Part shown: piece by piece, positions 1 to 63,402 of the stretch | Position numbering within the stretch: the first letter of the stretch is position 1 | How the letters are laid out: every line of letters begins with the position of its first letter | From: an uncultured Chryseobacterium sp. | GTDB taxonomy: Bacteria > Bacteroidota > Bacteroidia > Flavobacteriales_D > Sanyastnellaceae | Direction: 5' to 3' | Assembly: GCA_964430305.1 (NCBI GenBank) | Contig: CAYSEX010000003.1 | Location: 3,837 to 67,836 of the forward strand | Length of the DNA: 64,000 nt | Program-made: the position numbers and the translations under genes | The notes under the pieces: model-generated | What the model saw: only the letters and a program-made list of their open reading frames with translations | The model's database searches: none | Told to the model about the DNA's origin: nothing

Positions 1-1776
1 TTCATACTGATCATCTGCCCAAAGTAAATAATAATCGCCTGGATCAAGCGTCACATCAGGCAGTCTCCACTTGTTTGGATTTGAGATATCATCACTGATG
101 AATTTCGATTTCAAGTTAACGGCTGTAGTTCCCGCATTATATAATTCAATCCAATCTGAATTGCCATCTGCGTCGGATGCATTCAATGTTCCAGCAGGTG
201 CAATTTCATTTATCACGATTGGTGTTGAACTCAGCTGACCAAAAACATAACGAAAGTTGCAATCATGATCATCAATGCTGTTGAGCCATGCATTGGGTAT
301 TACCCCAACAACAATGTTTATGCTATCTGTTGGAAGAGCTATGGAAGAGAAATATTTTTTCTCATTCAGTGGTCCTGGTCCTATTTCTATCGAAGTAGGT
401 AAGGTGTTCCACACATTGGTTAAAATGTTTCTGTAAACTACGGTATGATCTGTAGGCAATGTATTGGCTAGATAAGTTACCAATAGACTGTCATTTTGAA
501 GTTGACCTCTCACGTTGTGTATACTCAAATAAGGCTGAATGTCATCCAATTGAACCACCGCGGTATTCCAGCGCGTATCAACATATTGTGTAATACCATA
601 GTCAACATGATTTCCCCAAGCTTCATCGATGGCATTCAAAAAGTCATCACTCGTGAATCCGAAATCAAGCGGTCGAAATGGGTCTTCAATCGCAGCGGTA
701 GCTATTAAATTTTGAAAATTCAATGCTCGTTGTGATACATGAGAAGGGTTAAAGTAGAGGCTTTGCAATTCGTACAGGTAATTTGTAAATTCATTCCTGT
801 AGCTCGGAACTTGAAGCAAACGTGTAAATAAGGGGCGCGTACTGTTGCCATTCCATGAATATACGGCTCGTGAACCCCAGTCTATTCCAACCCAATCAAT
901 TCCCAAGGTATTGTCTAAATCATATGGGATATATTCCAACAGCCCAGTATTTTCATTTTGATACAAATAGTAGTTGTTTTTATTGAAAATATATCCATCC
1001 CAATTTCCAATGAGAACATCAATGGCCATGATTTTTAGATAGTCGTGAACATTGAAAATACGCTCAATTTCACAAGGCAAATTAGTGAGTGAAGTTTGAT
1101 TCAGCTTGGTTACAAAATTGGCTAAGACAGAAAAGTCTTGCTGATCCTCATTTTCAATTAAATTGTAACTGTCATCGGCATAGGCATCTGGATTAGTTCC
1201 CTGAAAGGCCAGATCACTTCCCCATAAACACTTCCAAAGGTTTTCAGTTCCATCATCGAAATAGGTGTCCGCAAACGTCTCGTCGATCTGCTCTACATTC
1301 ACATACAAGCCGGCATATAAATCGTTGATATATAAACGAACATAGGAAACGCGGGCACCTGGAATTCCCGCTTCCCTGAAAAAATCCCAACACAATTTCG
1401 CTCGAAGTAAACTAGGGTCATTTTGATTCGCAATGAGATTCACTTCTTTCAAACCATAAAAAGACTGGGGTGTGAAAGCATCAAATTTCAACTTGAATGA
1501 TTTCTTTTGAGCCGCTAGAGATGTATTGCCTCTTAATCGAATACCCACTTGGTTATATCCTGAAAATCCCGTTGCAGTAGAATAAACCAAATTACAAGGA
1601 AACTCGTGTGAATTCCCCCAATTGGCAGGATCCTCGAGGGCCGATAAGGTATCCATATCTATACTCACATGAATAGTTGCAACTTCATCTTGCAAAAAGG
1701 CCATTCCCCACTCAGGTAATTGCGCAGAAGTATGAATGGCAAGAATTGAGGTTAACAAAAAAGCTATAATTCTCAT
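1..1776 (-). CDS. CotH-family secreted protein with a C-terminal lamin-tail-like (LTD) segment. It is partial: the 3' end runs off the window.
   Basis: It is absent from the ORF track because no stop codon lies in the window. Manual translation from the ATG at 1776..1774 gives a signal peptide (MRIIAFLLTSILAIHTSAQ), then CotH-like blocks (NLIANQNDPSLLRAKL; DYLKIMAIDVLIGNWDGYIFNKNNYYLY), then an LTD-like stretch (VINEIAPAG..SDWIELYN..LDPGDYYLLWADD). Its start overlaps the upstream stop codon (ATGA). Confidence 0.75.
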   Translation of the reverse strand, partial: MRIIAFLLTSILAIHTSAQLPEWGMAFLQDEVATIHVSIDMDTLSALEDPANWGNSHEFPCNLVYSTATGFSGYNQVGIRLRGNTSLAAQKKSFKLKFDAFTPQSFYGLKEVNLIANQNDPSLLRAKLCWDFFREAGIPGARVSYVRLYINDLYAGLYVNVEQIDETFADTYFDDGTENLWKCLWGSDLAFQGTNPDAYADDSYNLIENEDQQDFSVLANFVTKLNQTSLTNLPCEIERIFNVHDYLKIMAIDVLIGNWDGYIFNKNNYYLYQNENTGLLEYIPYDLDNTLGIDWVGIDWGSRAVYSWNGNSTRPLFTRLLQVPSYRNEFTNYLYELQSLYFNPSHVSQRALNFQNLIATAAIEDPFRPLDFGFTSDDFLNAIDEAWGNHVDYGITQYVDTRWNTAVVQLDDIQPYLSIHNVRGQLQNDSLLVTYLANTLPTDHTVVYRNILTNVWNTLPTSIEIGPGPLNEKKYFSSIALPTDSINIVVGVIPNAWLNSIDDHDCNFRYVFGQLSSTPIVINEIAPAGTLNASDADGNSDWIELYNAGTTAVNLKSKFISDDISNPNKWRLPDVTLDPGDYYLLWADDQYE

Positions 1777-2489
1777 TTCAACTTTCGCTTAAAAAGTTGA
1801 GCCGGTTTGTGCAGAACACCCTGCTGCTTTTCCTCAAGTGGTGTAAGTGTTTCAGTTCTTAAAATGTTTTTTCTGAAATTACGTTTATCTAATTTTTTAT
1901 CGAGAATGATCTCGTATAATTTTTGTAGTTGTGACAGTGTGAATTTTTCGGGCAACAATTCAAAGCCAATGTGATCAGCCATCAGTTCATGTCGTAACAT
2001 CAGTAAGGCCTTATGTACAATTTCATTGTGGTCGAAGGCAAGAGACGGTATGTTGTAAACGTCAACCCAATAAGCATTTCCTGCAAAATTCGCTGCTTTC
2101 GGTTTGAACTCAGAGAGCTTAACCAATGAGTAATATCCAACAGTTAAAACGCGTCTTTCAGGATTCACGCGAAAAGTTCGCAACCACTGTTGATCTTTTA
2201 GACCACGAACACGATTGGGATCACCGAATGCAAAAAACTGCTTTAAATAAATGCCTTTTAACGAGGTGAGCTCTTTCAATATACGGGCTGCCGCCTCATC
2301 TAAACTTTCATTATCCAATACCAAATCTCCTGGAACTGCTTTCTGCGTTTTAATGGATGTATCTGCTGGCTGCTTTTGTTCAATGAGCAACACCTTCAGC
2401 TGATCGTTATCAAATCCAAATACCACACAATCCACGGAAATATCCATGCCCTGTGTCTCAATTTTCGGTTTTATTCCCTTGTTTGTCAT
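1773..2489 (-). CDS. Nudix-domain transcriptional regulator (NrtR/AraR-like: Nudix fold plus C-terminal winged helix)
   Basis: The Nudix-like core reads VPGDLVLDNESLDEAAARILKELTSL. The C-terminus (FTLSQLQKLYEIILDKKLDKRNFRKNILRTETL...HKPAQLFKRK) is typical of the NrtR wHTH. I chose the start at M54 of the tracked ORF (MTNKGIK) because the longer versions overlap the divergent fadH-like gene. Starts at 2573 or 2648 are not excluded. Confidence 0.7.
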   Translation of the reverse strand: MTNKGIKPKIETQGMDISVDCVVFGFDNDQLKVLLIEQKQPADTSIKTQKAVPGDLVLDNESLDEAAARILKELTSLKGIYLKQFFAFGDPNRVRGLKDQQWLRTFRVNPERRVLTVGYYSLVKLSEFKPKAANFAGNAYWVDVYNIPSLAFDHNEIVHKALLMLRHELMADHIGFELLPEKFTLSQLQKLYEIILDKKLDKRNFRKNILRTETLTPLEEKQQGVLHKPAQLFKRKLK

Positions 2490-2494
2490 ACTTC

Positions 2495-2513
2495 GTGTGA
2501 AAAATACACTTTC
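2495..2513. promoter_or_regulatory. Operator-like site C: GTGTGAAAAATACACTTTC
   Basis: It matches GTGTA-N5-TACACTTTC and shares the 9-mer TACACTTTC with sites at 4580, 60442 and 63323. It lies between the Nudix regulator start (2489) and a -7 box (2513..2520). Confidence 0.6.
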
Positions 2514-2520
2514 AAAAGTA
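2513..2520 (-). promoter_or_regulatory. Bacteroidota -7 promoter box (TActTTTG) for the Nudix regulator gene
   Basis: The reverse complement reads TACTTTTG, followed immediately by site C and then the ATG about 24 nt later. Confidence 0.4.
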
Positions 2521-2573
2521 ATAGAAATTGCTTCTTGTTCATTGAAGAAGATTTCTCCTACATTCGCAAGCAT

Positions 2574-4565
2574 ATGAGCATTGCCCTTACTTCTATAACC
2601 ATAGCCAATCAGACATTGCGAAACCGTTACATCATGGGATCCATGCATACCGGTTTGGAAGAACTTCCCAATGGTTTCGAAGCCATGGCCGCCTATTATG
2701 CCGAAAGAGCCAAGGGTGAAGTAGCGTTGATTATAACCGGTGGTGTTTCACCAAATGCACAAGGTCAATTGTGGCCGGGTGCCATCATGTTACAAGATGC
2801 CTCTCTCGTTGACAAACACAAAATCATTACCACGGCTGTGCACAACGAAGGTGGAAAAATAGCACTTCAAATTTTGCATGCAGGTAGATATGGTGTCCAT
2901 GATCAGTGCGTAAGTGCCTCAGCCATTCAAGCACCGATCAATATTTATACACCGCGAGCACTTACTGTTGAAGAAATTGAAAATACGATATCAGATTTTG
3001 CCTACTGCGCTCAACTCGCTGAACAGGCCAACTATGACGGGGTTGAAATCATGGGAAGTGAGGGGTATTTGATCAATCAATTTATTTCACCAAGAACCAA
3101 CCAACGAAAAGATGCATATGGAGGTTCAATGGAGAATAGAATGCGATTCGCCATAGAAATTGTGCGAGCCATCAAAGCCGCGGTGTCCGAGAATTTCATT
3201 CTTATCTTTCGTATTTCCATTGCTGATTTGGTTGAAAACGGAAGTTCAAAAGATGAGATTGTATACTTGGCTCAGGCTCTGGAAAAGGAAGGTGTTCATA
3301 TTTTTAATACCGGTATTGGTTGGCACGAAGCCCGCATTCCAACAATTAGTATGCGTGTTCCAAGAGGTGCATACTCATGGGCTGCCGCTTGGTTGAAAGA
3401 ACAGGTTTCAATTCCAGTTTCAGCAACGAATAGAATTAACACGCCTGAATTAGCAAATGAAATTATTTCAAGTGGAAAGGCTGATTTGGTTAGTCTAGCT
3501 AGACCATTGTTGGCCGATCCCTTTTTCGTTCAAAAGGCGAGAACTGGAAATGCGCATCGCATAAATACCTGCATTGCCTGCAATCAGGCATGTTTGGATC
3601 AGATTTTTTCAGGTGAAACGGCATCTTGTTTAGTGAATCCGTTTGCTGCCAGAGAGCTCACATGGAAAATTATCCCAACAAAAAACACCAAGAGAATTGC
3701 GGTCATTGGAGCTGGGGTTTCCGGATGCGCCGTTGCCATTACCTTGAGTCAACGTGGGTTTCAGGTGGAAGTGTTTGAAAAGTCGAATGCGATTGGAGGA
3801 CAATTTAAATGGGCAGCCCAAATTCCGGGAAAGGAGGAAATGAACGAGACACTTCGCTATTACTCTGAAGAGTTGAAAGAACTTCAGGTGCCTATACATT
3901 TGAACTGCAAGGATTCATCTTGGCTTGAAGATACTTTTGATTTTCACGTCATTACAACGGGCGTGGTTCCAAAAGAATTGAATTCATTGAAATCAGATCA
4001 TTCCATTCCCGTTTTAAACTATGTTGAGGCCATTGAACAAGAATCCTTACTTGGTAAGGAAATCGTCATTATTGGTTCCGGAGGAATTGCCATGGATGTG
4101 GCTAGTCTCCTAGGGTCTGAAGCTGAGGGAATAACTGATTACCAAGATCATTGGGGAGTTGATCCTTCTCTCAATTTCCCTGGAGCGCTTAAAGAAAAGG
4201 TTTTGCGAGTGGCGAAGCGAAAAATTCATTTCGTACAACGAACTGGAAAAAAGTTGGGATTCAAATTGGGAAAGACCACCGTGTGGTCGCATCGCACGGA
4301 ATTGGCTGAATTGGGTACCCAAATTCATTCACACGTTTCAAACATGGAAATTCGTGATGGCGCATTTCTTATGACCAAAGGTGAAAATATTGAGGTGCTA
4401 AACCCTTCGGCAATTATCAATTGCACAGGACAAGAATCGAATCTTCCAGGGTCATTCAATGTATCAAATCATGTGGTGCTTGGAGGAGCTAAATCAAGTG
4501 AGCGATTAGACGCCAAAAGAGCCATATATGAGGCCACTGCTTGGGCTATTCAATTCGAAATGTGA
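2574..4565 (+). CDS. fadH: NADPH-dependent 2,4-dienoyl-CoA reductase-like flavoprotein (OYE-type FMN domain, 4Fe-4S motif, FAD/NAD(P) domain)
   Basis: The N-terminus (TLRNRYIMGSMHTGLEELPNGFEAMAAYYAERAKGEVALIITGG) parallels E. coli FadH. CIACNQACLD is the Fe-S motif, and IAVIGAGVSGCA is a Rossmann GxGxxG. The start was moved to M67 (MSIALTS) of the 729-aa tracked ORF. Confidence 0.8.
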   Translation: MSIALTSITIANQTLRNRYIMGSMHTGLEELPNGFEAMAAYYAERAKGEVALIITGGVSPNAQGQLWPGAIMLQDASLVDKHKIITTAVHNEGGKIALQILHAGRYGVHDQCVSASAIQAPINIYTPRALTVEEIENTISDFAYCAQLAEQANYDGVEIMGSEGYLINQFISPRTNQRKDAYGGSMENRMRFAIEIVRAIKAAVSENFILIFRISIADLVENGSSKDEIVYLAQALEKEGVHIFNTGIGWHEARIPTISMRVPRGAYSWAAAWLKEQVSIPVSATNRINTPELANEIISSGKADLVSLARPLLADPFFVQKARTGNAHRINTCIACNQACLDQIFSGETASCLVNPFAARELTWKIIPTKNTKRIAVIGAGVSGCAVAITLSQRGFQVEVFEKSNAIGGQFKWAAQIPGKEEMNETLRYYSEELKELQVPIHLNCKDSSWLEDTFDFHVITTGVVPKELNSLKSDHSIPVLNYVEAIEQESLLGKEIVIIGSGGIAMDVASLLGSEAEGITDYQDHWGVDPSLNFPGALKEKVLRVAKRKIHFVQRTGKKLGFKLGKTTVWSHRTELAELGTQIHSHVSNMEIRDGAFLMTKGENIEVLNPSAIINCTGQESNLPGSFNVSNHVVLGGAKSSERLDAKRAIYEATAWAIQFEM

Positions 4566-4579
4566 ACATTTTTTACTTG

Positions 4580-4598
4580 GTGTAAGAAGTACACTTTC
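4580..4598. promoter_or_regulatory. Operator-like site D: GTGTAAGAAGTACACTTTC
   Basis: It has a perfect 5-bp inverted repeat (GTGTA/TACAC) with a 5-nt spacer. It is followed after 2 nt by a near-consensus -7 box (TACTTTGc) and lies 33 nt upstream of the GH65 ATG. Confidence 0.6.
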
Positions 4599-4630
4599 TT
4601 TACTTTGCATTCTTACGAATTGCAAGCGCT

Positions 4631-6844
4631 ATGATAAAATATTTGAAAACAGACCCGTGGAAAATCATTGAAGATTCCTTTCATTCTCATTTGCAAAGAA
4701 GTTCTGAAAGCATCTTCAGCATTGGGAATGGTAAATTTGGTCAACGTGCAAATCACGAAGAAGACTTCTCTGGACCAAGCTTGCAAGGCAGTTACATAGC
4801 GGGTGTTTATTATCCAGACAAAACGCGCGTTGGATGGTGGAAGAATGGCTATCCTGAGTACTTCGCAAAAGTTCTCAATTCAGCAAATTGGATTGGTTTA
4901 AGTATTCATGTAAATGACGAAATGCTTGACTTGAATACATGGAAAGTAGAGTCTTTTGAACGTGTGTTGGATATGAAGCAGGGTTTACTTCAACGCTCGT
5001 TTATTGCTACGTCTCCTTACGGAAAAAGAATTCAAGTAGTTGCTGAAAGATTTTGTAGTATGGCCAATGATGACCTTGCTGCAATTCGATACGAGGTTAA
5101 AGCTTTAGATGAAGATATACTCCTTTCGGTTAACTCTTTCATAGAGGCTGAAGTTCGAAATCATGATAGCAACTATGATGAGCTGTTTTGGAAGAGCATT
5201 CGTTCACAGGCAAATGAAAACGTAGGTTCAGTTCAAGCTGAAACGTTGAAGACTGGTTTTCAAGTTGCATGGGCCATGGAAGTGCATGATAATAAAAATT
5301 CAAATTGGTCAGCAACTCACAATGCACACCGAGTTGAGTCAACTACAAAAACTCAAATCCAAAAGGGTGAGTCTGTAGTATTTCACAAGTACGTGTCCAT
5401 AGTAAGTTCATTGAATGAACAAGCCGAATCTCTTTCGCAAGTAGCTTCCAACAAAGCAAAACAAGCTGCAGTCATAGGTTACCAAGAATTGCGCACAGCT
5501 CACGTTCAAGCATGGGATAAAATTTGGGAACTCGGCGACATTTGCATTGAAGGTGATGACGAGGCACAACAAGGTATTCGTTTTAATATTTTCCATCTCA
5601 ACCAAACCTATACCGGTCAAGATGCACGATTAAATATTGGTCCGAAGGGATTTACCGGAGAAAAATACGGAGGGTCGACTTATTGGGACACTGAGGCGTA
5701 TTGTCTTCCTTTCTATCAAAGCACTAGGCAATCTCACGTGGCTAAGCAACTCTTGGTGTACCGATTTAGGCAATTGGACAAGGCCATTGAAAATGCCCAG
5801 AAATTGGGATTCACTCACGGAGCGGCTTTGTATCCTATGGTAACCATGAATGGAGAAGAGTGTCACAACGAATGGGAAATAACCTTCGAAGAAATTCACA
5901 GAAACGGCGCCATTGCTTATGCCATTTATAATTATGTGAAATACACTGGAGATGAAGCGCACTTGGGTGAATACGGATTTGATGTTTTATTGGGTATTGC
6001 TAGATTTTGGTCACAAAGGGTCAATTGGTCGGAAGCAAAACAAGCTTACGTAATGCTGGGTGTAACTGGACCGAATGAATATGAGAACAATGTAAACAAT
6101 AACTTTTACACCAATTACATAGCGGCTTGGTGCATGAAATACGCCAAGGAAGTAGGGGAGAAGCTTCAGTCAGAAAATGTCACCTTGTTCAATGAAAAGT
6201 GTAAGAAATGGAATTTGGATTTTCAAACAGAGAGTGCTGCATGGCAAGCGCGCATTGACAAGATGTATTACCCCAAGCTTGAGAATAGCCTCATCTTTTT
6301 GCAGCAAGATGGATTCATGGACAAAGAGCAACTGAGCATTGCCGATTTGAAAGCTGAAGAGCGTCCAATCAATCAGCATTGGAGTTGGGATCGTATTTTA
6401 CGCAGCATATTCATAAAGCAAGCAGATGTTTTGCAAGGTTTTTTCTTTTTTGAAGAAGACTTTACCATGGAAGAACTCAAAGCCAATTTCGATTTTTATG
6501 AGCCGAAAACCGTTCACGAATCCAGCTTATCGCCTTGTGTCCATGCCATATTAGCAGCGAAGTTGGGTTATGAAGAAAAGGCCTATGAAATGTATGTAAG
6601 AACCTCTAGATTGGATATTGATGATTACAACCATGAAGCTCATGAGGGATTGCATATTACATCAATGGCCGGCACTTGGATGTCTGTAGTTATGGGCTTT
6701 GGTGGAATGCGCGTGAAAAACGGGGAATTGGTTTTTGAACATGCTTTGTTGCCGAAGAAATGGAAAAGTCTAACTTTTAACGTACTGTTCAGAAATAAAC
6801 AGCTTCGAATTGTATTGAATGAAAGCGGAGTGCAAATAGCTTGA
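4631..6844 (+). CDS. Glycoside hydrolase family 65 phosphorylase (maltose/kojibiose/trehalose phosphorylase type)
   Basis: At 737 aa the length fits GH65. The N-terminus (DPWKIIEDSF...IFSIGNGKFGQRANHEE) and the catalytic-region block (GVTGPNEYENNVNNNFYTNY) are typical of GH65. Confidence 0.85.
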   Translation: MIKYLKTDPWKIIEDSFHSHLQRSSESIFSIGNGKFGQRANHEEDFSGPSLQGSYIAGVYYPDKTRVGWWKNGYPEYFAKVLNSANWIGLSIHVNDEMLDLNTWKVESFERVLDMKQGLLQRSFIATSPYGKRIQVVAERFCSMANDDLAAIRYEVKALDEDILLSVNSFIEAEVRNHDSNYDELFWKSIRSQANENVGSVQAETLKTGFQVAWAMEVHDNKNSNWSATHNAHRVESTTKTQIQKGESVVFHKYVSIVSSLNEQAESLSQVASNKAKQAAVIGYQELRTAHVQAWDKIWELGDICIEGDDEAQQGIRFNIFHLNQTYTGQDARLNIGPKGFTGEKYGGSTYWDTEAYCLPFYQSTRQSHVAKQLLVYRFRQLDKAIENAQKLGFTHGAALYPMVTMNGEECHNEWEITFEEIHRNGAIAYAIYNYVKYTGDEAHLGEYGFDVLLGIARFWSQRVNWSEAKQAYVMLGVTGPNEYENNVNNNFYTNYIAAWCMKYAKEVGEKLQSENVTLFNEKCKKWNLDFQTESAAWQARIDKMYYPKLENSLIFLQQDGFMDKEQLSIADLKAEERPINQHWSWDRILRSIFIKQADVLQGFFFFEEDFTMEELKANFDFYEPKTVHESSLSPCVHAILAAKLGYEEKAYEMYVRTSRLDIDDYNHEAHEGLHITSMAGTWMSVVMGFGGMRVKNGELVFEHALLPKKWKSLTFNVLFRNKQLRIVLNESGVQIA

Positions 6845-6874
6845 TTATATTCGTGATGAAATTTGATCTTCATC

Positions 6875-8248
6875 ATGAAAAAAATAAGTATAAGCTTTGT
6901 TCTACTTGTTGCATTTATCTTGAACTCATTGGGGCAAGATGCGACAGTTATTTATAAAAATACAGTTGGTTCAACGGTTACTATTGAGACAGAGTTGGGC
7001 ATTGGTTCTGGATTTTTTGTCGCACCAAATGTCATTGCGTCCAATTACCATGTTATTGAAGGTGCTGTAACAGCCAATTGTTTTTTAAGTAATAGTCAAA
7101 CCCGCTATGAGATTGATGGTTATGTGGGGGTTGATCAGAAGGCAGATTTGGTTTTACTGCATGTTGTAGGATTAGATAAGCCCAAGATTGCTATGGCTAG
7201 TGGGGCACCTACACCTGGGGAAAAGGTTTTTGTGATGGGAAGTCCCAAAGGATTGCCCGCAACAATATCAGATGGAATTGTAAGCGGATTGCGAGATTTT
7301 GATGGAATTAAGCACATTCAAATGACAGCTCCAATTTCACCGGGTTCAAGTGGTGGACCAGTTATGAATGGAAAGGGTGAATTAATTGGAGTTTCTGTCA
7401 GTCAATATACTGAAGGACAAAATATCAATTTTGCTGTACCGAGATCGTATTTGCAGTTGCTTCTAGATTTTATGAATTCTGAGCCACAACCATTAGTAAA
7501 TTTAATTGTATCTGGCGCTGTAGACTTCGACCTTACCACGGAAGATGTATATACTGGTGGTGGTGATGTAACTTATGCAATTGATATGTTTCCTGGCAAT
7601 AAGCCAGAATTGGTACTAGATTACATGGCCAGTTGGGAAGAACAGACGTGTTTTTATTTTACCTATTCCGTAGCCGAAGATTACGCAAGTAGATATACTT
7701 CAATCTACATGAAAGAATACACGTTAATTGACAGAGAAAGCGGAACAAAATATTATGCGAATTATACCGATTTACCTACCGATGAAAATGACCCAAGATG
7801 GATCTATAGAGGAACGGAAAGTCCTTTCTTAGTATGTTTTGACCGTATTCCAAGTTCAGTAACTTCTTTTGACTTGATTGAAGGAACATGTGAAGATGGA
7901 CAATTCTGCATTACAGAGTTAGATGTGTCCACATTTAAAGTGGTAACAAATGATGAGGTGGATTGGGATTTATATGAAAAGGCAGACACTGAAGGAAGTG
8001 TGAGCTTCTATTCGCATTACGGTGGAGCAGGTGATATCTCATTTTATATTGAGGGGATTTATGTAGGGAAATTAGATCAGTATTTTGAAGATCAAAGTTA
8101 CTCACCGGCATGTGGAGATGATGGAACGCTAGTTATTCGTTTGCCAGCTGGAACCTACAATTACAAAGCGTCCGACTCGAAATACAACTGGAGTGGCACA
8201 GTTACAATTGAAGCGAATGGTTGTTTGTCACAAGGAATTCGGGAATAG
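6875..8248 (+). CDS. Secreted trypsin-like (S1 family) serine protease with an uncharacterised C-terminal region of about 250 aa
   Basis: It has a signal peptide (MKKISISFVLLVAFILNSLGQ). The catalytic triad context is NYHVIEG (His), ADLVLLHV (Asp) and GSSGGPVMN (Ser). Confidence 0.75.
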   Translation: MKKISISFVLLVAFILNSLGQDATVIYKNTVGSTVTIETELGIGSGFFVAPNVIASNYHVIEGAVTANCFLSNSQTRYEIDGYVGVDQKADLVLLHVVGLDKPKIAMASGAPTPGEKVFVMGSPKGLPATISDGIVSGLRDFDGIKHIQMTAPISPGSSGGPVMNGKGELIGVSVSQYTEGQNINFAVPRSYLQLLLDFMNSEPQPLVNLIVSGAVDFDLTTEDVYTGGGDVTYAIDMFPGNKPELVLDYMASWEEQTCFYFTYSVAEDYASRYTSIYMKEYTLIDRESGTKYYANYTDLPTDENDPRWIYRGTESPFLVCFDRIPSSVTSFDLIEGTCEDGQFCITELDVSTFKVVTNDEVDWDLYEKADTEGSVSFYSHYGGAGDISFYIEGIYVGKLDQYFEDQSYSPACGDDGTLVIRLPAGTYNYKASDSKYNWSGTVTIEANGCLSQGIRE

Positions 8249-8322: not shown

Positions 8323-8396
8323 GGTCCGGTAGTTCAGTTGGTTAGAATACATGCCTGTCACGCATGGGGTCGCGGGTTCGAGTCCCGTCCGGACCG
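8323..8396 (+). tRNA. tRNA-Asp (anticodon GTC)
   Basis: A manual cloverleaf fold works: acceptor GGTCCGG/CCGGACC, anticodon stem CATGC/GCATG with loop CTGTCAC, and a GTTCGAGTC T-arm. Confidence 0.9.
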
Positions 8397-8843: not shown

Positions 8844-11123
<2,280 letters not shown>

Positions 11124-11207: not shown

Positions 11208-11423
11208 CTAGTGTTCATGGCAATGAACCTCATAGGTTCCTGTAGAATCAGTATATCCGTTAGCTTCTAAAGCCTCAATGTCATCTCCACATTGTTCGCC
11301 CAATTCCACAATACCATTCAATCCATCGTAGTGGCATTCGTGACATTTGTTTTTACCACAAGAGAGCAGTGCCGACGTCGCAATCATTGCGATTAAGAGA
11401 TAGAATTTCGGGTTGTTTTTCAT
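11208..11423 (-). CDS. 71-aa Cys/His-rich mini-lipoprotein (CXXCH and HCHEH motifs), translationally coupled to the TonB-dependent receptor
   Basis: It has a lipobox (ALLSC). The mature part is CGKNKCHECHYDG...EVHCHEH. Its ATG overlaps the receptor stop codon (ATGA at 11420..11423). Confidence 0.6.
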   Translation of the reverse strand: MKNNPKFYLLIAMIATSALLSCGKNKCHECHYDGLNGIVELGEQCGDDIEALEANGYTDSTGTYEVHCHEH

Positions 11424-13441
11424 TGTTGTTTTGAATTAATGTCGAATTGAAGTGTAAGAAAATATCCTCTTCCCATCATAGGAATGCCCATGCTTTTTAA
11501 TCGAGACAAATGATCAATGTACGTTTGATTGGTCAAGTTTTTAACTCCCAATTTCATTGTGATAAGTTGTGTGTTTTTGAATTCTAATTCAACCGAGGCA
11601 TCTATTGTGTAGTAAGCTGGTGAAACAGTTTCGAAACGAGCAACATTTGTTTGTTTACCGCACCAATTGAATTCCGTGGTGAGTTGATGAATGCGCCATT
11701 TTCGATTCGATTGAAACGTATATTGTATCACTTCTGTACAACGGGGCTGGGGGAGAAGTGCAACTTCTTGAGAGCCATGTGGAAGTATAAGAGAAAAATT
11801 AGTTTCAGTGTGCAGGCCATGTGCAAAGTGCGGGTGGTGATGCAAAGCAACATCAATTCCATAAAATTTTACTTTTTGCGTTTGTTCATAGGTATAAACG
11901 GGCAGTCCAGAAATAATAAAGTCATTCGGATTCAAGAAGATATAATTTCGAAAAATATTGAAAAATGGATTGATCAAAAGCGAGGTGTGTTCGTGATTGA
12001 ATTTTACAGAAAGGTCAAGTTGATTGGCGAATTCGGGTTTTAAATTCATATCGCCAATCTCAAATCGCAAGGCGCCATGGTGAATACCATTGGATAATAA
12101 TTCAGCATAATTCGGAGCACGGTACCCGCTAGAGGTAGACACACGGAATTGGTGTTTTCCAAAATTATAAAGAGCATTCAAGGCATAAGTGCTCGCCTTA
12201 AAGACTCTTTGATATTCAGAAGATATGAAATTCAAATCGGAAGTTTTTAATGTACGCATGTCTGCTCGAGCACCCAATTGAAGAAACCAATTCCGTAAAT
12301 TCCAATCAATTAAACTGTATATGCCTAAATCTAGTGTGTAACCATTTGGAGTCAAAAATTCAGTCGCATTCTCACTGTTTGTATTGAATTGATACATGCT
12401 TTGAATACCGGATATAATTCGTGTTTTCTCATTCATTTTAAACAGCCATTTGGCTTGCATTAATGAATTTGTGAGTTGCAGATCTATACCCGGAATGGTC
12501 CATTTTTCCTCAAATTCACTCAAATTATTTTTCGAATATCCGAGAAGAATTTGAAATTCATTTTTTTTCAAATACCAACGGTTATCGTTCAATAGAAATA
12601 GATTCTGTTGAATTTGCACAGGTATGGTATACCTTCTTTCCCATGTATTGACTTGGAAGAGTAGCGGGTTTATAATAGTGTCATGTGAATGCCCGGGTAA
12701 ACCCACTCTAAAATTGGAGTAAGCTATTTTAATCTGATGCGTACCAAATTTAGAATTGTAGGATAGGCCTCCATTCAAACCGAATTCAGCAAATCGAGAA
12801 TTTTCAAGGAACTTGCCATTAGGAAGCTGATAATCTGCATGATTCCCATAACGCGCCCCGATATGCCATTGGGTTTTGCTTTTTGATTGGGTGTAAAAAA
12901 ATTGATTCACAACTCCTTTGGTATTGGTATTGAGTTGCGATTTAGCTTTTATGCGATAGCTATTTTTACTTGGTTGCTCTTCATCTTTGAAATAAATAAC
13001 ACCGCCTAAAGCGTCTGAACCATAGATTAGACTTGACGGACCTTTAATCACTTCAATACTACCAATGCCCAATTCTGAAAGTCCAAGTCCGTGATCACCT
13101 CCCCATTGTTGCCCTTCCATTCTTAATCCATTCCACACACTCACAATCCGATTTCCTTGCATACCGCGAATGACAGGCCTATAAATACCTGGTCCTGAAC
13201 TGGCCGCATAAACTCCTGGAATTTTTGAAATAGCGTCTCCAAGGTTGAGGGTGGGCGTGGATTGCAGGTCATTCAGCGATTTATATTCAATTTGAATGGG
13301 ATTGGTTTGCTGATTTTTTGAAGTAATTCCTGATACCCGAATTTGATTCAGATATAAGTGAGGTACTGAGTCTGGTTGAGCAAGAATCCAATAAGCAGGT
13401 ATGATAGAAAAGATGAAAAAAAGTAGTAAGCAACGAATCAT
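11420..13441 (-). CDS. TonB-dependent outer-membrane receptor (metal or heme type, with a His-rich loop)
   Basis: It has a plug domain (IEVIKGPSSLIYGSDALGG), a RAP/NLKPE pair with intervening His residues (GYRAPNYAELLSNGIHHGALRFEIGDMNLKPE), a His-rich stretch (ALHHHPHFAHGLH), and a C-terminal beta-barrel ending in an aromatic region. The start was set at M11 (MIRCLLLFF). Confidence 0.85.
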   Translation of the reverse strand: MIRCLLLFFIFSIIPAYWILAQPDSVPHLYLNQIRVSGITSKNQQTNPIQIEYKSLNDLQSTPTLNLGDAISKIPGVYAASSGPGIYRPVIRGMQGNRIVSVWNGLRMEGQQWGGDHGLGLSELGIGSIEVIKGPSSLIYGSDALGGVIYFKDEEQPSKNSYRIKAKSQLNTNTKGVVNQFFYTQSKSKTQWHIGARYGNHADYQLPNGKFLENSRFAEFGLNGGLSYNSKFGTHQIKIAYSNFRVGLPGHSHDTIINPLLFQVNTWERRYTIPVQIQQNLFLLNDNRWYLKKNEFQILLGYSKNNLSEFEEKWTIPGIDLQLTNSLMQAKWLFKMNEKTRIISGIQSMYQFNTNSENATEFLTPNGYTLDLGIYSLIDWNLRNWFLQLGARADMRTLKTSDLNFISSEYQRVFKASTYALNALYNFGKHQFRVSTSSGYRAPNYAELLSNGIHHGALRFEIGDMNLKPEFANQLDLSVKFNHEHTSLLINPFFNIFRNYIFLNPNDFIISGLPVYTYEQTQKVKFYGIDVALHHHPHFAHGLHTETNFSLILPHGSQEVALLPQPRCTEVIQYTFQSNRKWRIHQLTTEFNWCGKQTNVARFETVSPAYYTIDASVELEFKNTQLITMKLGVKNLTNQTYIDHLSRLKSMGIPMMGRGYFLTLQFDINSKQQ

Positions 13442-13449
13442 GAAAATGT

Positions 13450-13510
13450 TATTTTTGCAACTGAATTGCAAATGTAAACGGCAAATACATTAATGCAACA
13501 TAATTGCAAT
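13450..13510. promoter_or_regulatory. Divergent promoter/operator region with two TGCAA-N5-TTGCA palindromes overlapping both -7 boxes
   Basis: TTTGCAActgaaTTGCAAA spans 13454..13472 and TGCAAcataaTTGCA spans 13494..13508. The plus-strand -7 box TAttTTTG lies at 13450..13457. The minus-strand -7 box TAcaTTTG is the reverse complement of 13469..13476. Confidence 0.5.
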
Positions 13511-24212: not shown

Positions 24213-24286
24213 TAGCGAGATTGGGGCTTGAACCCAAGACCTTGCGATTATGAATCGCACGCTCTAACCAGCTGAGCTACCTCGCC
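24213..24286 (-). tRNA. tRNA with anticodon CAT (elongator Met, or Ile2 if lysidine-modified)
   Basis: A manual fold works: acceptor GGCGAGG/TCTCGCT (two G-U pairs), anticodon stem TGCGA/TCGCA with loop TTCATAA, and T-arm TTGGG-TTCAAGC-CCCAA. Confidence 0.85.
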
Positions 24287-32726: not shown

Positions 32727-32798
32727 TGGTCCCGTCGCGAATCGAACGCGAATCCTAGGTTCCGGAGACCTATGTAATATCCATTATACTACGGGACC
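32727..32798 (-). tRNA. tRNA-Arg (anticodon CCG)
   Basis: A manual fold works: acceptor GGTCCCG/CGGGACC, anticodon stem TAGGT/ACCTA with loop CTCCGGA, and T-arm TCGCG-TTCGATT-CGCGA. Confidence 0.9.
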
Positions 32799-35268: not shown

Positions 35269-35341
35269 TAGCGGGGACAGGACTCGAACCTGTGGCCTTT
35301 GGGTTATGAGCCCAACGAGCTACCAACTGCTCCACCCCGCA
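35269..35341 (-). tRNA. Initiator tRNA-fMet (anticodon CAT)
   Basis: The sequence tGCGGGGTGGAGCAG...GGGCTCATAACCC... has three G-C pairs closing the anticodon stem and a T:T mismatch at positions 1:72. Both are initiator signatures. Confidence 0.85.
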
Positions 35342-54541: not shown

Positions 54542-54568
54542 AAAAAAAGGGCCGAAGCCCTTTTTTTT
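54542..54568 (-). terminator. Rho-independent terminator closing the PUL operon
   Basis: The sequence aaaaaaaGGGCcgaaGCCCtttttttt lies immediately after the stop codon at 54567. Confidence 0.7.
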
Positions 54569-55397
54569 AATCGCAGTTCAAAGGAACATAATAAATATAG
54601 GGTGGAGGATTTGGAGTATACCCTGGCTTCACAATGTAATATGCCAATTTAGTAATGGTAGATCCTGCCGGAACAGGGATGAATTCTTCAGGTATAAATG
54701 TGATTCTGAATTTTCCACCTCCAATGTCTTTCATTTTAAGCGATGGAGTAGAAGTAACATTTGCAGCAATTGCCACATCGAAATAGGTAAAGCTGCCAGT
54801 GAATGCACGAAGGAAAATGTAACATTCGTCGGTACCGAGATTTTGAAGATTGGCATCTGTTTCTTGAAGGTTGTCATAGGTAATACTCAAGAAATCATCT
54901 TGCTTAGCAGCCTCTGGAAACAGACAAATTCTGTCAGCACATAATGCGGGAACAATATCAATATGTAAATCTTCTGTTTTCGCCTCTCCAACACCATCAT
55001 CAGCATATGCATAACCGCTTTTCAATTTTGCCAAGCATGAAATTCCTGTTTGATATAAATTCAAAGGAGTAATTCCTGAATAAAATTGAGTTGGTACAAC
55101 TGTCATTTTATACAAGAGTCCTTGAACTTGAGTTAACAACATACAATCATTCGAATTTCCCCACTCGCCATTGCCGCATGCTGGACCTGCGGGTTGCCAT
55201 GTCCACATATAGACAGAATCTTGCGCATCTGGATGGTTATTCAAGATGGCTTTTAATCCGCCTGTGGTTTGTGCAACATCAATGTAAATATCAACTGTGC
55301 CATTGGCATTTGTTGGCGATGGAAAAACGAAAGCAGCCTGTCCGAAAGAATTCAGAGCGGCAATACTCAATGCTATGAGTGCAAATATATTTTTCAT
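54567..55397 (-). CDS. PUL-encoded secreted protein (in a SusE/F-like position) sharing a module with the N-terminus of the amylase
   Basis: The signal peptide MKNIFALIALSIAALNSFGQ begins at the internal Met. The segment FPSPT..VDIYIDV...GEWG...MTVVPTQFYSG parallels the amylase segment FPTQT..ITIIYDA...GNWG...IVITPQTFYGL. Confidence 0.55.
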   Translation of the reverse strand: MKNIFALIALSIAALNSFGQAAFVFPSPTNANGTVDIYIDVAQTTGGLKAILNNHPDAQDSVYMWTWQPAGPACGNGEWGNSNDCMLLTQVQGLLYKMTVVPTQFYSGITPLNLYQTGISCLAKLKSGYAYADDGVGEAKTEDLHIDIVPALCADRICLFPEAAKQDDFLSITYDNLQETDANLQNLGTDECYIFLRAFTGSFTYFDVAIAANVTSTPSLKMKDIGGGKFRITFIPEEFIPVPAGSTITKLAYYIVKPGYTPNPPPYIYYVPLNCD

Positions 55398-55401
55398 AGA
55401 A

Positions 55402-55899
55402 CTAGATTCGTTTGAAGTTAAACTTGTAAATGACATTTTTAAATTGGTCAGAAGAGCAAACACGATGCATTTCGAAACTCATGTTTTCACTTTGAGGCAA
55501 TACCATACTTCCTAAAAAGAGTTCAATGGTATCGTTGGCATTCATTAAAGTAATAGATGAAGGGGCCACGTAGTCATCCAAAGACCAGGTTCCAGCATTT
55601 CCGAAGAAGTTTCTACCCACGGTATTGGTTACTTGGTAAGTCAATGAATCTACATTGAGTTGAATTTGCATAGGAGTAATTCCTTCAACAACATAGAACT
55701 CACTCAAATCGCGCTGCTCGAGTACGGGATTATTTGGATCTTGTTGTATGAAAGTAGTGAGTTCCCATGTTCCACCCATGCCTTTCACTTTATCAGTGGT
55801 TTCGCCTAATTCGGCACAGGTCTCTGGTTTGCATGAGAAGAAAATTGAACTTGCTAATGCAGCAATGAAAAAATATTTTGTGTATTTCATAACGTTCAT
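55402..55899 (-). CDS. PUL-encoded small lipoprotein (165 aa)
   Basis: It has a lipobox (IFFSC) and sits directly after the SusD-like gene. Confidence 0.55.
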   Translation of the reverse strand: MNVMKYTKYFFIAALASSIFFSCKPETCAELGETTDKVKGMGGTWELTTFIQQDPNNPVLEQRDLSEFYVVEGITPMQIQLNVDSLTYQVTNTVGRNFFGNAGTWSLDDYVAPSSITLMNANDTIELFLGSMVLPQSENMSFEMHRVCSSDQFKNVIYKFNFKRI

Positions 55900-55906
55900 G
55901 TATTAA

Positions 55907-57298
55907 TTATTGACAACCTCCTTCCGGATTTCCTACAAATAGGGCAGAAGTAAATTCACTATTTGGGAATTGAAGAGCCATTCCGTCACAATTCCAAGGT
56001 GCTCCTCTTACAATGATATTCTCACCTTTGGCGCCTCGTCTTTTGAGTTGGTCTACCCATTTTCCTTCTCCCATGGTTTCAATTCTATACTCTCTGCGCG
56101 CTGCATCAATGATTTGAGCCGCTGTTGAACTGGCATCTAAGTCGTTTAAACCAATTCCAAATGCTCTATCGCGAATTGAATTGATGTCGTCAATAGCAGT
56201 TCCAAGATCTTGACCTAATTCGGCAAGTGCTTCAGCACGAATAAGACGTAACTCAGAAGTATAGATAATTGGAATATTGAAAAATATTTTGTCTTTAAAT
56301 CTTAAGTTCCTGTATTTACCTCCATCTGCTTGCATCCAACCCAAGCGATCATCAGCACTATTCAGATTCACGAAGTTGTAGAAATCATTGTTGAACATTA
56401 AGTTCGGAGGAAGTGCTCCGCCAGAATTGTAGTTTCCAACAAAATTATCTGTACGTTGATCAATATGTGCTGCTCCAGGGTTTGAACTTACAATACCAAA
56501 AATAATTTCTGGGTTAACACCTGGGTTATCAGGGAATCGATCGAGTGTGTCAGACATTGGATAATTATCTACCACCTGATTGATGTAATTCACGGCATTT
56601 TGAAAATCATTCATTTGGAAATAAACCATTCCCATTAGCGCAGTAGCAGCATCTTTGTTCGCATAGTTCCCATTGCTTGTGGGCAAATTTTCAATTGCAA
56701 AAGCAAGATCTGATAGAATGAAAGCGTATACTTCTGCGACCGTGTTTCTAGGTAAAGGTTCATTGCTAGCTTCGCTGCGAATGATGATACCCAAGTGATT
56801 ATTGGTAGGTGTAGCGCCATATGGCTGTGCGTACAATTTTACCACACCCCAATGACAGAAAGCACGGATGAATTTGGCCTCAGCCTCCATTCGAGTTCTT
56901 TCTTCTGCTGTTAATCCTTCTATTAAATCGAAATTTTTCAGCAATGAATTGCAACGATAAACGGCGTAATAAAAATCACCGTAAACACCATTGGTAGTAG
57001 GGGTGAAGAAATTGGTTTCGCGATTGTAGATCGCATTGAAATCAAGACCATTGGGTTCGGCTAGATTATCACCCATGAGTTCGTTGATGTTTTGTACTTT
57101 CCCGTCGTACAAATTCGCTAACACGTCATAGCAGCTTACCAATAATTTTTGTGCATCTGCAGGCGTTTTCAGAGCATCTTCGGCTAGAATAGCACCCGAA
57201 GGCGGGTATTCTAAAAACTTTTCACAAGATACAAAAGCTCCTATGATTGTAAGAGATGTAAGTGAGGTAATTAATATCTTTTTCATTTCAGATTTCAT
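55907..57298 (-). CDS. SusD/RagB-family nutrient-binding outer-membrane lipoprotein
   Basis: It has a lipobox (GAFVSC) and a TPR-like helical pattern (ALMGMVYFQMNDFQNAVNY; LIRAEALAELG). Its start overlaps the SusC-like stop codon by 1 nt. Confidence 0.9.
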   Translation of the reverse strand: MKSEMKKILITSLTSLTIIGAFVSCEKFLEYPPSGAILAEDALKTPADAQKLLVSCYDVLANLYDGKVQNINELMGDNLAEPNGLDFNAIYNRETNFFTPTTNGVYGDFYYAVYRCNSLLKNFDLIEGLTAEERTRMEAEAKFIRAFCHWGVVKLYAQPYGATPTNNHLGIIIRSEASNEPLPRNTVAEVYAFILSDLAFAIENLPTSNGNYANKDAATALMGMVYFQMNDFQNAVNYINQVVDNYPMSDTLDRFPDNPGVNPEIIFGIVSSNPGAAHIDQRTDNFVGNYNSGGALPPNLMFNNDFYNFVNLNSADDRLGWMQADGGKYRNLRFKDKIFFNIPIIYTSELRLIRAEALAELGQDLGTAIDDINSIRDRAFGIGLNDLDASSTAAQIIDAARREYRIETMGEGKWVDQLKRRGAKGENIIVRGAPWNCDGMALQFPNSEFTSALFVGNPEGGCQ

Positions 57299-60200: not shown

Positions 60201-60393
60201 CGGTATTCAACGTATACATTCCCGATCCGTCGGAAGCCGTTCCAATGGCAGTTCCAGGAATCATTAAGATTGCACCAGGTACCGGTTTATTGTCTTGGTC
60301 TAGAACTTTCCCAGTTACTTTTTGGGCATAACTGGTACTTAGACCAACCACAATACCGAACAGTACTAGTCCAAATTTATACAAGTGGTTCAT
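57298..60393 (-). CDS. SusC/RagA-family TonB-linked outer-membrane transporter
   Basis: It has a CarboxypepD_reg-like N-terminus (VTGKVLDQDNKPVPGAILMIPGT), a plug domain (IEKVEVRKDAAAAGEYGSRAANGVIIITTKR), is 1031 aa, and ends in F. Confidence 0.95.
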   Translation of the reverse strand: MNHLYKFGLVLFGIVVGLSTSYAQKVTGKVLDQDNKPVPGAILMIPGTAIGTASDGSGMYTLNTGAGNFTIEVKTLNFETVKQSVTVKDKETVNLNFQLTTTSMTLDNIEIVGYGVERNRPGTGSVAKISGKDITAIRTPSFEAALQGQAAGLQISQGSGIAGSGSLVRIRGIGSISAGGDPLYIIDGIPMTQDYFLRGNSGAMNNNPLATINPSDIEKVEVRKDAAAAGEYGSRAANGVIIITTKRAKEKGWKFEYGVNSGISTPASRPNMLNTEEYLRIRQEAWENDGGTGYVWLPNFTSSTDDAATRKAAYMNAMKTDTDWVSQTIGRGSKYGVNFGGRYGAKNASVYFSMAYDNNESFLLGNSYKRIAARVNPEFKLGDKLRLNLSLSGTRGLNKRVDAAWSGGLGDAMSNALPFYPVQDSTGAFYYWRDEFGNVKNPVAYREQLRWTTVEDRMINTARLIYMPVKNVIFVATGGYDWMQIGENRLTPATFDLSNGQGSYSRDERIVRNKSTNITGEWGKEIATDMNFSALVGFEYQTSKTEFSNNYIPNLTDAYTELSDISDVPETQVVRNVYNPTEFSFMGFFTKMKWDYKGKYFVEGTFRRDGSSRFGVNNKFGNFPSASAGWIISEENFLKDSKKINFMKLRASWGLTGNSDIPANAQYALYSAVNNGIFYNQDSIIFPQQAGNPNLKWETTSNFSVALETGFMEDRFTVILEGYRKYSKDVLMNVSLPASTGFTNFWDNVAEVKNMGIELTTIINWFKGKEFGMKTNFNISYNYNELVSIGNYTPDAVSGGTNDSRVIVGRPIGSFYMVQFSHIDPTNGQPMYLTPQGNLTDDYDNSIRNYVGSGLPKCIGGLTQSFTWKNFNLSALFTYSLGAKIFDSSAKRQLGVVTSWNMREEILDRWREFGDETSFGRLTLDETSYGLPDGFPWWNTSMFIYKADYLRLRNLSLDYTLPASWTKSMKMTNVTVGVSATNVFTITNFPGLDPEVVRDFENAQDRNLSPNVTYLTPMQERSFNIRLNANF

Positions 60394-60441
60394 ATTGATT
60401 GTTTAGGTTAAGTTCGAATGCGAATATATCAATTTTACAGT

Positions 60442-60460
60442 GTGTACAATATACACTTTC
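60442..60460. promoter_or_regulatory. Operator-like site A: GTGTACAATATACACTTTC
   Basis: It lies in the 77-bp gap between the amylase stop and the susC-like start. On the minus strand, after 4 nt, it is followed by a -7-like TAAAATTG. Confidence 0.6.
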
Positions 60461-60470
60461 TCAACAGGTG

Positions 60471-63321: not shown

Positions 63322-63322
63322 G

Positions 63323-63341
63323 GAAAGTGTATTTTGTACAC
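63323..63341. promoter_or_regulatory. Operator-like site B: GTGTACAAAATACACTTTC on the minus strand
   Basis: It matches site A at 18 of 19 positions. The minus strand reads GTGTACAAAATACACTTTC-C-TATATTTG. Confidence 0.6.
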
Positions 63342-63402
63342 CAACTAATTACCTCGATTTTTAAAATTTCATTCGTTACTTTGGAAAATCAATTGAAAAG
63401 AC

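Follow-up and report, generated by a model that had tools for sequence, protein, structure and literature searches.

A candidate NrtR/AraR-family repressor of starch-uptake and maltose phosphorylase genes in an uncultured Chryseobacterium sp.

What joins a starch-uptake locus to a phosphorylase gene that lies about 56 kb away? The question is raised by a 64-kb stretch of DNA from an uncultured Chryseobacterium sp. (contig CAYSEX010000003.1; hereafter the window, meaning the whole stretch analysed). Near one end, a gene for a 238-aa Nudix-domain protein of the NrtR/AraR family stands close to a gene for a GH65 glycoside phosphorylase, and near the other lies a starch polysaccharide utilization locus (PUL) whose first gene encodes a GH13 enzyme. 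An earlier note, made from the sequence alone, had observed the same 19-nt operator-like motif at both places and had proposed a Nudix-type regulon for maltose or alpha-glucan use. Our answer, to which we assign a probability of roughly 0.8, is that the NrtR/AraR-family protein would act as a sugar-pathway repressor, holding down both the starch-uptake locus and the maltose phosphorylase gene through four predicted operators.

LacI-type regulators run starch PULs in many Flavobacteriia. Those of Bacteroides are classically assigned to SusR (PMC3878776), and the roles described for the NrtR family are nicotinamide adenine dinucleotide (NAD) metabolism, in response to ADP-ribose or NAD, the synthesis of phosphoribosyl pyrophosphate, and xylose or arabinose use in Bacteroidetes (PMC2330246, PMC3878776, PMC4666351). 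In the open full-text literature we found no Nudix or NrtR regulator of starch, maltose or alpha-glucan PULs or of glycolysis, only work on NAD, arabinose and xylose, and within that scope the regulon is undescribed, as had been supposed.

Four operator sites in the window

The pattern GTGTNNNNNNTACACTTTC (GTGT-N6-TACACTTTC) has exactly four matches in the window, where 0.01 are expected and none of 100 dinucleotide-preserving shuffles reaches four. They lie at 2495-2513 (+; site C), 4580-4598 (+; site D), 60442-60460 (+; site A) and 63323-63341 (-; site B), with the coordinates and sequences that the earlier note had quoted. The 9-mer TACACTTTC by itself occurs five times, against 0.47 expected; the fifth copy, at 29986 (-), lies within an open reading frame (ORF), has no GTGT partner and is treated as chance. 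Open reading frame boundaries confirm that all four sites are intergenic. Site C is located between the ATG of the regulator gene (2489, minus strand) and that of a divergent gene for a flavoprotein like those of the old-yellow-enzyme (OYE) family (2574), and site D between the stop codon of the latter (4565) and the GH65 ATG (4631). Site A falls between the GH13 stop (60471) and the SusC ATG (60393), upstream of susC, and site B is upstream of the GH13 ATG (63296, minus strand).

The conserved unit is a palindrome of 21-25 bp, which takes the form TTAGTGTA-N5-TACACTAA in relatives and has the core GTGT-N7-ACAC. Of the motif as first described, 19 nt long with a GTGTA-N5-TACAC core, the palindrome stands, while the TTTC tail drops out of the conserved core because it flanks one arm only. 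We rejected TTTC as a separate element for the same reason: this flank of the operator arm is conserved at GH13 promoters, and TAAG/CTAA is found at regulator and pfkA sites.

Bacteroidota promoters reportedly follow a consensus of TTG at -33 and TAnnTTTG at -7, said to come from work by Bayley in 2000 and Chen in 2007. Sites B and D share one layout: a TTG, a 20-nt stretch made up of GTGTA-N5-TACACTTTC and 1 nt more, and the -7 box, so the operator fills the promoter spacer. In the GH13 promoter, site B is preceded by the -33 TTG and followed, after 1 nt, by the -7 box TATATTTG, which matches the consensus exactly. At site D the -7-like box TTACTTTG has one mismatch, and the site occupies the spacer to the -33 TTG of the GH65 promoter; it is thus inside this promoter and not just upstream of it, where it had been placed before. 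Site C abuts the exact -7 box TACTTTTG on the regulator's strand, ends 5 nt short of the ATG and covers the expected transcription start of the regulator gene. Site A lies over or beside the susC promoter, with the -7-like boxes TAAAATTG (one mismatch) and TATATTCG. A -7 box therefore accompanies every site, as claimed, exactly at B and C and with one mismatch each at D and A. Such positions at promoters fit a repressor-type operator.

An Rfam search of the window at gathering thresholds returned four tRNAs and no family over the operator sites, and a repeat search returned no family besides the C/B pair itself; an RNA element and a mobile repeat were rejected on these results.

Operators and gene order in relatives

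Homologues of the regulator number in the thousands, the best 120 of them being 69-92% identical and mostly from freshwater Flavobacteriales metagenome-assembled genomes. A scan seeded with the regulator, keeping one genome per species, provided 80 loci, and a metagenome scan with the GH13 protein of the window provided an independent set of 80 further loci; individual loci are cited below by L numbers. Genes were labelled by mapping the window proteins and four Pfam-typed neighbour proteins onto the loci. In nearly every locus, GTGTA-N5-TACAC with at most one mismatch is found 30-150 nt upstream of the regulator, and 63 of 79 relatives have a site within 330 nt upstream of the regulator gene.

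We built a symmetric 25-bp matrix (consensus ACTTAGTGTAAAATTTACACTAAGT) from 48 distinct sites that lie upstream of the regulator in relatives, the window being left out. Its flank columns, which were not used in site selection, are still informative (T at -10, T/A at -9, A at -8). Run on the window, this relatives-only matrix scores the four sites at 17.1-25.5 bits and nothing else in 64 kb at 8 bits or more. The predicted operators that it delimits are C at 2490-2514 (23.4 bits), D at 4575-4599 (24.6 bits), A at 60437-60461 (17.1 bits) and B at 63322-63346 (25.5 bits). Site C is conserved in L001-L012; equivalents of site D reach 24.6-26.9 bits in the same loci and 19.3 bits in L034, and L081-L087 and many regulator-adjacent PULs likewise keep a site before SusC.

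Across the 80 regulator-seeded loci (1.18 Mb), the matrix has 109 matches at 12 bits or more, compared with a mean of 2.6 and a maximum of 6 in block shuffles. More than half stand in spacers between pfkA and the regulator (59), with 6 others before pfkA alone; 11 are in OYE/regulator spacers, 10 before GH65, 9 before GH13, 8 before SusC, 2 in kinase/regulator spacers and 1 before the regulator alone, which leaves 3 outside these classes. None lies inside a labelled gene, and none precedes the internal operon genes gap, pgmB and SusD. The matches are thus concentrated before the first genes of alpha-glucan and glycolysis operons, and the promoters of the proposed targets GH65, GH13 and SusC carry sites in relatives too, which bears out the earlier note's reading of the motif as an operator. 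One of the three unclassed matches, at 7704 in L073 (Profundicola chukchiensis KMM 9724, a cultured organism), is just upstream of a ROK-family glucokinase gene (6713-7678).

Some spacers hold more than one site. Between pfkA and the divergent regulator, two operators are present in L013, L021-L026, L064, L078 and L086, the first close to pfkA and the second close to the regulator. The distance between them is about 50-115 nt in most of these loci and 33 nt in L086; such pairs recall the tandem AraR sites of Bacteroides. Loci of the Weeksellaceae type (7704 in L073; 6645 in L079) show an extra operator between the sugar-kinase and gap genes.

The order of the genes accounts for the recurrence of the motif at a distance of 56 kb in this genome. 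The ancestral layout, seen in about 95 loci, is GH65 <- pgmB-like HAD <- BadF-type sugar kinase <- glyceraldehyde-3-phosphate dehydrogenase (GAPDH) <- 6-phosphofructokinase <> regulator -> GH13 -> SusC -> SusD, so that in many relatives the regulator gene itself joins the maltose operon and the starch PUL. The full divergon is found in L048, L051, L054-L058, L062-L067, L071, L076-L078 and L080, whose regulators share 57-70% identity with the query; in L070 and L072 the layout is the same except that pfkA and gap are missing. In an intermediate clade the regulator is adjoined by the pfkA operon only, and in the window clade (L001-L012, 88-98% identical) the order is regulator <> OYE -> GH65, as in the window. 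L034 has the order GH65-OYE-pgmB-kinase-gap-pfkA; the window layout looks as if it had come from this arrangement by loss or relocation of the PUL and of the block from pfkA to pgmB. On this comparison of gene orders, we read the window lineage as a rearranged divergon in which adjacency was lost and operators were kept. The co-occurrence of orthologous regulators with GH65 and GH13 genes, expected if the regulon is real, is seen in the loci of many relatives.

The GH65 operator follows the same course. A site of its own before GH65 is found only where this gene has parted from the pfkA operon, whether by the OYE-like gene (L001-L012, L034 and the window) or by a gap of about 680 nt (L072), which indicates that the operator follows the gene when the operon is broken.

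The GH13-seeded set leads to the same picture. Every one of its loci that contains the regulator has at least one site (16 of 16). Where PULs of the window clade lie apart from the regulator, a site is still present before GH13 and another before SusC, in L081 and L082 (GH13 95-96% identical) as well as in L083-L085 (60-66%). About 44 more distant GH13 loci have neither a regulator within the fetched flank nor a site. When the regions upstream of GH13 are aligned for eight lineages, only T-GTGT-N7-ACACTTT and the -7 box are conserved and the surroundings diverge, a textbook phylogenetic footprint. The conserved ACACTTT arm in this footprint accounts for the TTTC tail first noticed at the sites.

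Other proteins occupy the gaps in a few loci. In L048 (10736-12970) and L035 (10744-12993), a CotH-like protein with a lamin-tail domain and a type IX secretion system (T9SS) sorting tail is encoded between the regulator and GH13, the GH13 operator coming after it. In L124, L125, L133 and L151, a pfkA-kinase pair is divergent from GH13 with neither Nudix-type regulator nor operator, and a small T9SS-tail protein is encoded in the gap; these may be lineages in which the regulation has been replaced.

The regulator, its operator and its effector

The 238-aa protein is encoded at 1773-2489 on the minus strand and consists of a degenerate Nudix domain and a winged-helix DNA-binding domain. Its Pfam matches are NrtR_WHD (2e-25, residues 175-234), AraR_C (1e-7) and NUDIX (1.7e-5, residues 18-108), with the matches to the Nudix-like domain and the C-terminal winged helix both above cut-offs. 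The closest solved structure is BtAraR, the L-arabinose repressor of Bacteroides thetaiotaomicron (E=7.5e-38, 41% identity over 181 aligned residues). Placement in the NrtR/AraR family, already proposed, is secured by these domains and by this structural match. Two further marks of the NrtR family are present as well. The Nudix signature is impaired, since GDLVLDNESLDEAAARILKELTSLKGI fails GX5EX7REUXEEXGU and E73 is the sole REUXEE glutamate left. Palindromic operators of about 21 bp stand before clustered targets, with four sites in the window and 109 in relatives; the usual operator of the family is a 21-bp palindrome (PMC2330246). An AlphaFold2 model of the regulator (15-sequence alignment) had a mean predicted local distance difference test score (pLDDT) of 39 and was left unused.

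The DNA-reading helix is that of AraR. The recognition helix DKRNFRK (residues 201-207) is identical in the window regulator and BtAraR, and is essentially invariant across 91 distinct orthologues that are 49-98% identical, the single exception being K207R. In the BtAraR crystal, the operator GCAAAAGTGTTACTTTTACACCC (strand GCAAAAGTGTTACTTTTACACCCATGC) is GTGT-N7-ACAC, and the GTGT motif is defined by K179, R180, N181 and K184 of helix alpha-6 together with K204 and R205 of the wing (PMC4666351). The geometry is that of the window sites; the wing pair K204/R205 corresponds to H227/K228 in our protein. This match of recognition code, together with gene adjacency, makes the regulator by far the best candidate binder. 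The motif is almost certainly a functional operator, the 238-aa protein very probably binds it, and it probably does so as a repressor, judging from the pattern of conservation, the reading helix and the promoter positions.

Membership of the AraR orthologous group does not extend to the ligand side. Among arabinose contacts of AraR, R86, H131, F129 and V92 are kept as R93, H154, F152 and V114; R34 is replaced by Gln38 (Gln in 87 of 91 orthologues), F36 is deleted, and G48/F49 are D55/L56. No ara gene is included among identified neighbours or operator-bearing genes. NrtR proper fits no better: the NCBIfam equivalog NF050029 is matched at 95 bits against a cut-off of 400, the ADP-ribose contacts R41 and K76 of SoNrtR are Q38 and L74, and the identified neighbours are glycolysis and alpha-glucan genes. 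By sequence and gene context, the protein therefore appears to be a new functional member of the NrtR family, belonging neither to NrtR proper nor to the AraR orthologous group.

The degenerate Nudix box points to a domain that serves as a ligand sensor, as in NrtR and AraR. The residues that changed pack against C4 and C5 of arabinose, which makes a larger sugar such as a hexose plausible. A clade-specific insertion of 15 residues after R93 (region 94-113) is absent from BtAraR and partly shared with SoNrtR. Within it K98, D99, W102, L103 and R107 are nearly invariant, as is R113 just after, and the insertion may help to determine a new effector specificity. Many orthologues have no counterpart of the N-terminal arm with which AraR closes its cleft. 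Our best guess at the effector would be maltose, glucose or a phosphate of glucose; it is possible, too, that the ligand is otherwise phosphorylated or is a nucleotide-sugar.

In the model that we propose, by analogy with BtAraR, a dimer would bind a palindromic operator of about 21 bp at four places in the window: its own promoter (site C, perhaps also serving the divergent OYE-like gene), GH65 (D), the GH13 amylase (B) and the susCD-susEF-like operon (A). Free of effector, the protein would block RNA polymerase by sitting on the promoter spacer, on the -33 region or at the transcription start. A cytoplasmic product of alpha-glucan breakdown would then bind the catalytically dead Nudix domain, the winged-helix domains would reorient and the DNA would be released. 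In relatives, the same protein and operator would also control the pfkA-gap-sugar kinase-pgmB-GH65 operon. Operators before both the PUL and the pfkA operon in relatives suggest that the regulator couples alpha-glucan foraging to glycolysis. The maltose or alpha-glucan regulon first proposed is thus supported by operators at GH65, GH13 and SusC and is too narrow in scope, as relatives add pfkA, gap, the sugar kinase and pgmB; judged by its operators, it would be a glucose/glycolysis regulon rather than one for maltose or starch alone.

Several observations weigh against this model, and some of them favour another binder. In L031, L034, L035, L037, L038 and L045, the regulator lies 1-3 kb from pfkA, and a site is kept with pfkA and none before the regulator. 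Autoregulation through site C, which the earlier note had suggested, agrees with the 63 of 79 relatives that have a site before the regulator, and these six relatives show that it is not universal and that adjacency alone does not prove the binder. Several stand-alone GH13 genes in unrelated neighbourhoods also carry a site with no regulator within 4 kb. The loci reach about 20 kb at most, and it is at the scale of such loci that the motif is seen to be specific. Finally, with Gln in place of R34 and a clade-specific loop beside the pocket, the effector is not readable from AraR.

A genuine palindrome could on this evidence be read by some other transcription factor encoded elsewhere, for instance of the Crp/Fnr or LacI type, the Nudix-type gene being a mere neighbour or target. 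We consider this quite unlikely: GTGT-N7-ACAC is the operator geometry of the BtAraR co-crystal and the reading helix is identical in our regulator, a site is present in all GH13-seeded loci that contain the regulator, and no other regulator gene is found among the PUL- and operon-flanking ORFs checked with Pfam. A Crp-like regulator was rejected as binder because the Bacteroides motif TATGTTnTAnAACATA (PMC3878776) is unlike the window motif. A second regulator in the gaps was likewise rejected, as these hold the CotH-like T9SS protein in L048 and L035, the T9SS-tail protein in L124, and Ham1 and a methyltransferase beside the stand-alone GH13 gene of L097. If the Nudix-type regulator does bind the sites, it could still be an activator or a dual regulator, since site A and the operators of some pfkA/regulator spacers are placed at the -33 region or upstream of it, where activators too can work. 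This seems very unlikely, because the operators take classical repressor positions, across the -33/-7 spacer at B and D and past the -7 box, before the ATG, at C, and because the characterised SoNrtR and BtAraR are repressors released by their effectors (PMC2330246, PMC4666351).

The effector side leaves room for a different reading, in which the protein is a true NrtR answering ADP-ribose, NAD or a nucleotide-sugar and making glycolysis, through its NAD-dependent GAPDH, and the use of glucans depend on the status of NAD or nucleotides. The best domain match is indeed the NrtR winged helix; part of the loop that follows R93 is found in SoNrtR too, and there R98 contacts ADP-ribose; the invariant basic residues K98, R107 and R113 of the loop could bind phosphates; and many orthologues have no N-terminal arm of the kind that closes the nucleotide cleft in AraR. 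We nevertheless hold it to be unlikely. The score against the NrtR equivalog and the replaced contacts have been given above (N43 of SoNrtR falls at a variable column of the alignment), the labelled neighbours include no identified NAD-metabolism gene in any locus, and the sugar-binding AraR is far closer than SoNrtR (E=9e-13). It is hardly credible that the repeat is chance or a structural feature, for example a repeat that accompanies promoters or a small mobile element, to which no dedicated protein binds. The sites are short, AT-rich and beside -7 boxes, and part of their similarity could be promoter consensus; yet the excess over expectation holds both in the window and in relatives, the palindrome is kept while flanks diverge among orthologues 49-98% identical, the motif occurs only before functionally linked operons, and no Rfam or repeat family covers it.

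The two loci and the place of the regulon

Beside the regulator, the OYE/FadH-like flavoprotein gene (2574-4565, +) encodes Oxidored_FMN and pyridine-nucleotide oxidoreductase domains (Pfam) and is possibly a regulon member through site C. Genes of this type recur in or beside the pfkA-gap-kinase-pgmB-GH65 cluster in L031, L034, L035, L037 and L045, at 45-51% identity to the window copy; as a speculation, the protein could be an NADH-reoxidising partner of glycolysis. Next comes the glycoside phosphorylase of the maltose-phosphorylase type (4631-6844, +), with the N, middle and C domains of GH65 in Pfam and a score of 1080 bits for NCBIfam PRK13807. Its N-terminal sequence, read directly, shows no evident signal peptide, and in relatives its gene is the next after pgmB. 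A trypsin-like ORF (HtrA/DegP-type protease domain; 6863-8248) begins 18 nt past the GH65 stop and may be co-transcribed with GH65, hence under the same operator; it was not detected beside GH65 in any relative. A tblastn search found no pfkA, gap, kinase or pgmB in the window.

The starch PUL opens with the GH13 gene (60471-63296, -), which encodes a secreted alpha-amylase or pullulanase-like protein with Alpha-amylase, CBM_48 and Por_Secre_tail (T9SS) domains by Pfam, and which is also matched in NCBIfam. It is followed on the same strand by genes for SusC (57298-60393), SusD (55907-57298) and two SusE/F-like proteins, DUF5004 (55402-55899) and DUF4961 (54567-55463), all assigned with Pfam. 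Among the Pfam-scanned ORFs around the PUL, in the window and in relatives, there is no gene for SusR, LacI or a hybrid two-component system. The window also has genes that appear ordinary and unrelated to the finding: tRNA genes at 8323-8396, 24213-24286, 32727-32798 and 35269-35341, and a catalase-peroxidase-like gene and a TonB-dependent receptor gene at 8844-11105 and 11420-13471.

The nearest known system is BtAraR (BT0354; PDB 5BS6, 5DD4, 5DDG, 5DEQ; PMC4666351), an NrtR-family protein which shares with our regulator the two-domain build, the degenerate Nudix box, the DKRNFRK helix and the GTGT-N7-ACAC operator geometry. Like the window regulon, that of AraR includes SusC/D-containing PULs plus cytoplasmic catabolic genes. 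It differs in its content, as the genes here belong to alpha-glucan, maltose and glycolysis pathways and not to arabinose use, and in the operator flank, TTAGTGTA in the window family and AAAGTGT in AraR. BtXylR (BT0791) and the Bacteroidetes NrtR1 and NrtR2 (Rodionov et al. 2008, PMC2330246), predicted pentose regulators, are likewise NrtR-family members of Bacteroidota recruited to sugar catabolism, with genes clustered with their targets and palindromic promoter sites. Compared by regulon, and not by sequence in the case of XylR, they differ from our system, since theirs (xylAB, araBAD, abf) are without GH13, GH65, starch susCD or pfkA/gap. SoNrtR of Shewanella oneidensis (PDB 3GZ5, 3GZ6, 3GZ8) has in common the family, the fold, the repressor logic, the 21-bp palindromic operator and part of the loop, including its Trp; unlike our protein, which matches it only at the E-value given above and has its ADP-ribose contacts replaced, it responds to ADP-ribose and controls NAD salvage and synthesis.

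Two systems are comparable by function only. CggR of Bacillus (SorC family) and HexR of Proteobacteria (RpiR family) are repressors of central glycolytic genes. They are functional analogues, with a repressor gene beside the gap- or pfk-type genes that it controls and a response to sugar phosphates, but have no homology to the window regulator and no link to outer-membrane glycan uptake. SusR, of the Sus system of B. thetaiotaomicron, serves a starch locus of the same type (amylase, susC, susD and susE/F), but is unrelated in sequence: it is a membrane-spanning activator that senses maltose in the periplasm and uses direct-repeat DNA sites (PMC3878776).

A bolder proposal, tentative and in our judgement rather doubtful, would make the clade a master switch that couples alpha-glucan foraging to glycolysis across non-Bacteroides Flavobacteriales. 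In this it would be a functional counterpart of CggR or HexR, with a hexose phosphate or some other phosphorylated metabolite of glucans as its signal. The carriers would be Crocinitomicaceae, Cryomorphaceae, Schleiferiaceae, Weeksellaceae and relatives, and the ligand might be, for instance, beta-glucose-1-phosphate or ADP-glucose, held in a Nudix pocket rebuilt with the invariant basic loop. If this is true, a Nudix-type transcription factor would have an effector from the hexose pathway for the first time.

The regulation of PULs is poorly known outside gut Bacteroides. The present finding offers a conserved and widespread candidate regulator, a precise operator model and a predicted regulon for starch or glycogen use and glycolysis in abundant freshwater and marine Flavobacteriales, and with the motif, alpha-glucan regulons can be predicted straight from metagenome-assembled genomes. 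Given AraR, a specialist will not be astonished; the value lies in a testable model for a very widespread type of PUL in environmental Flavobacteriales and in a predicted new class of effector. The range of Nudix-domain transcription factors would thereby extend from NAD metabolites and pentoses to the hexose and alpha-glucan pathway, and the family would provide a test case for the evolution of effector specificity on a fixed DNA-reading head.

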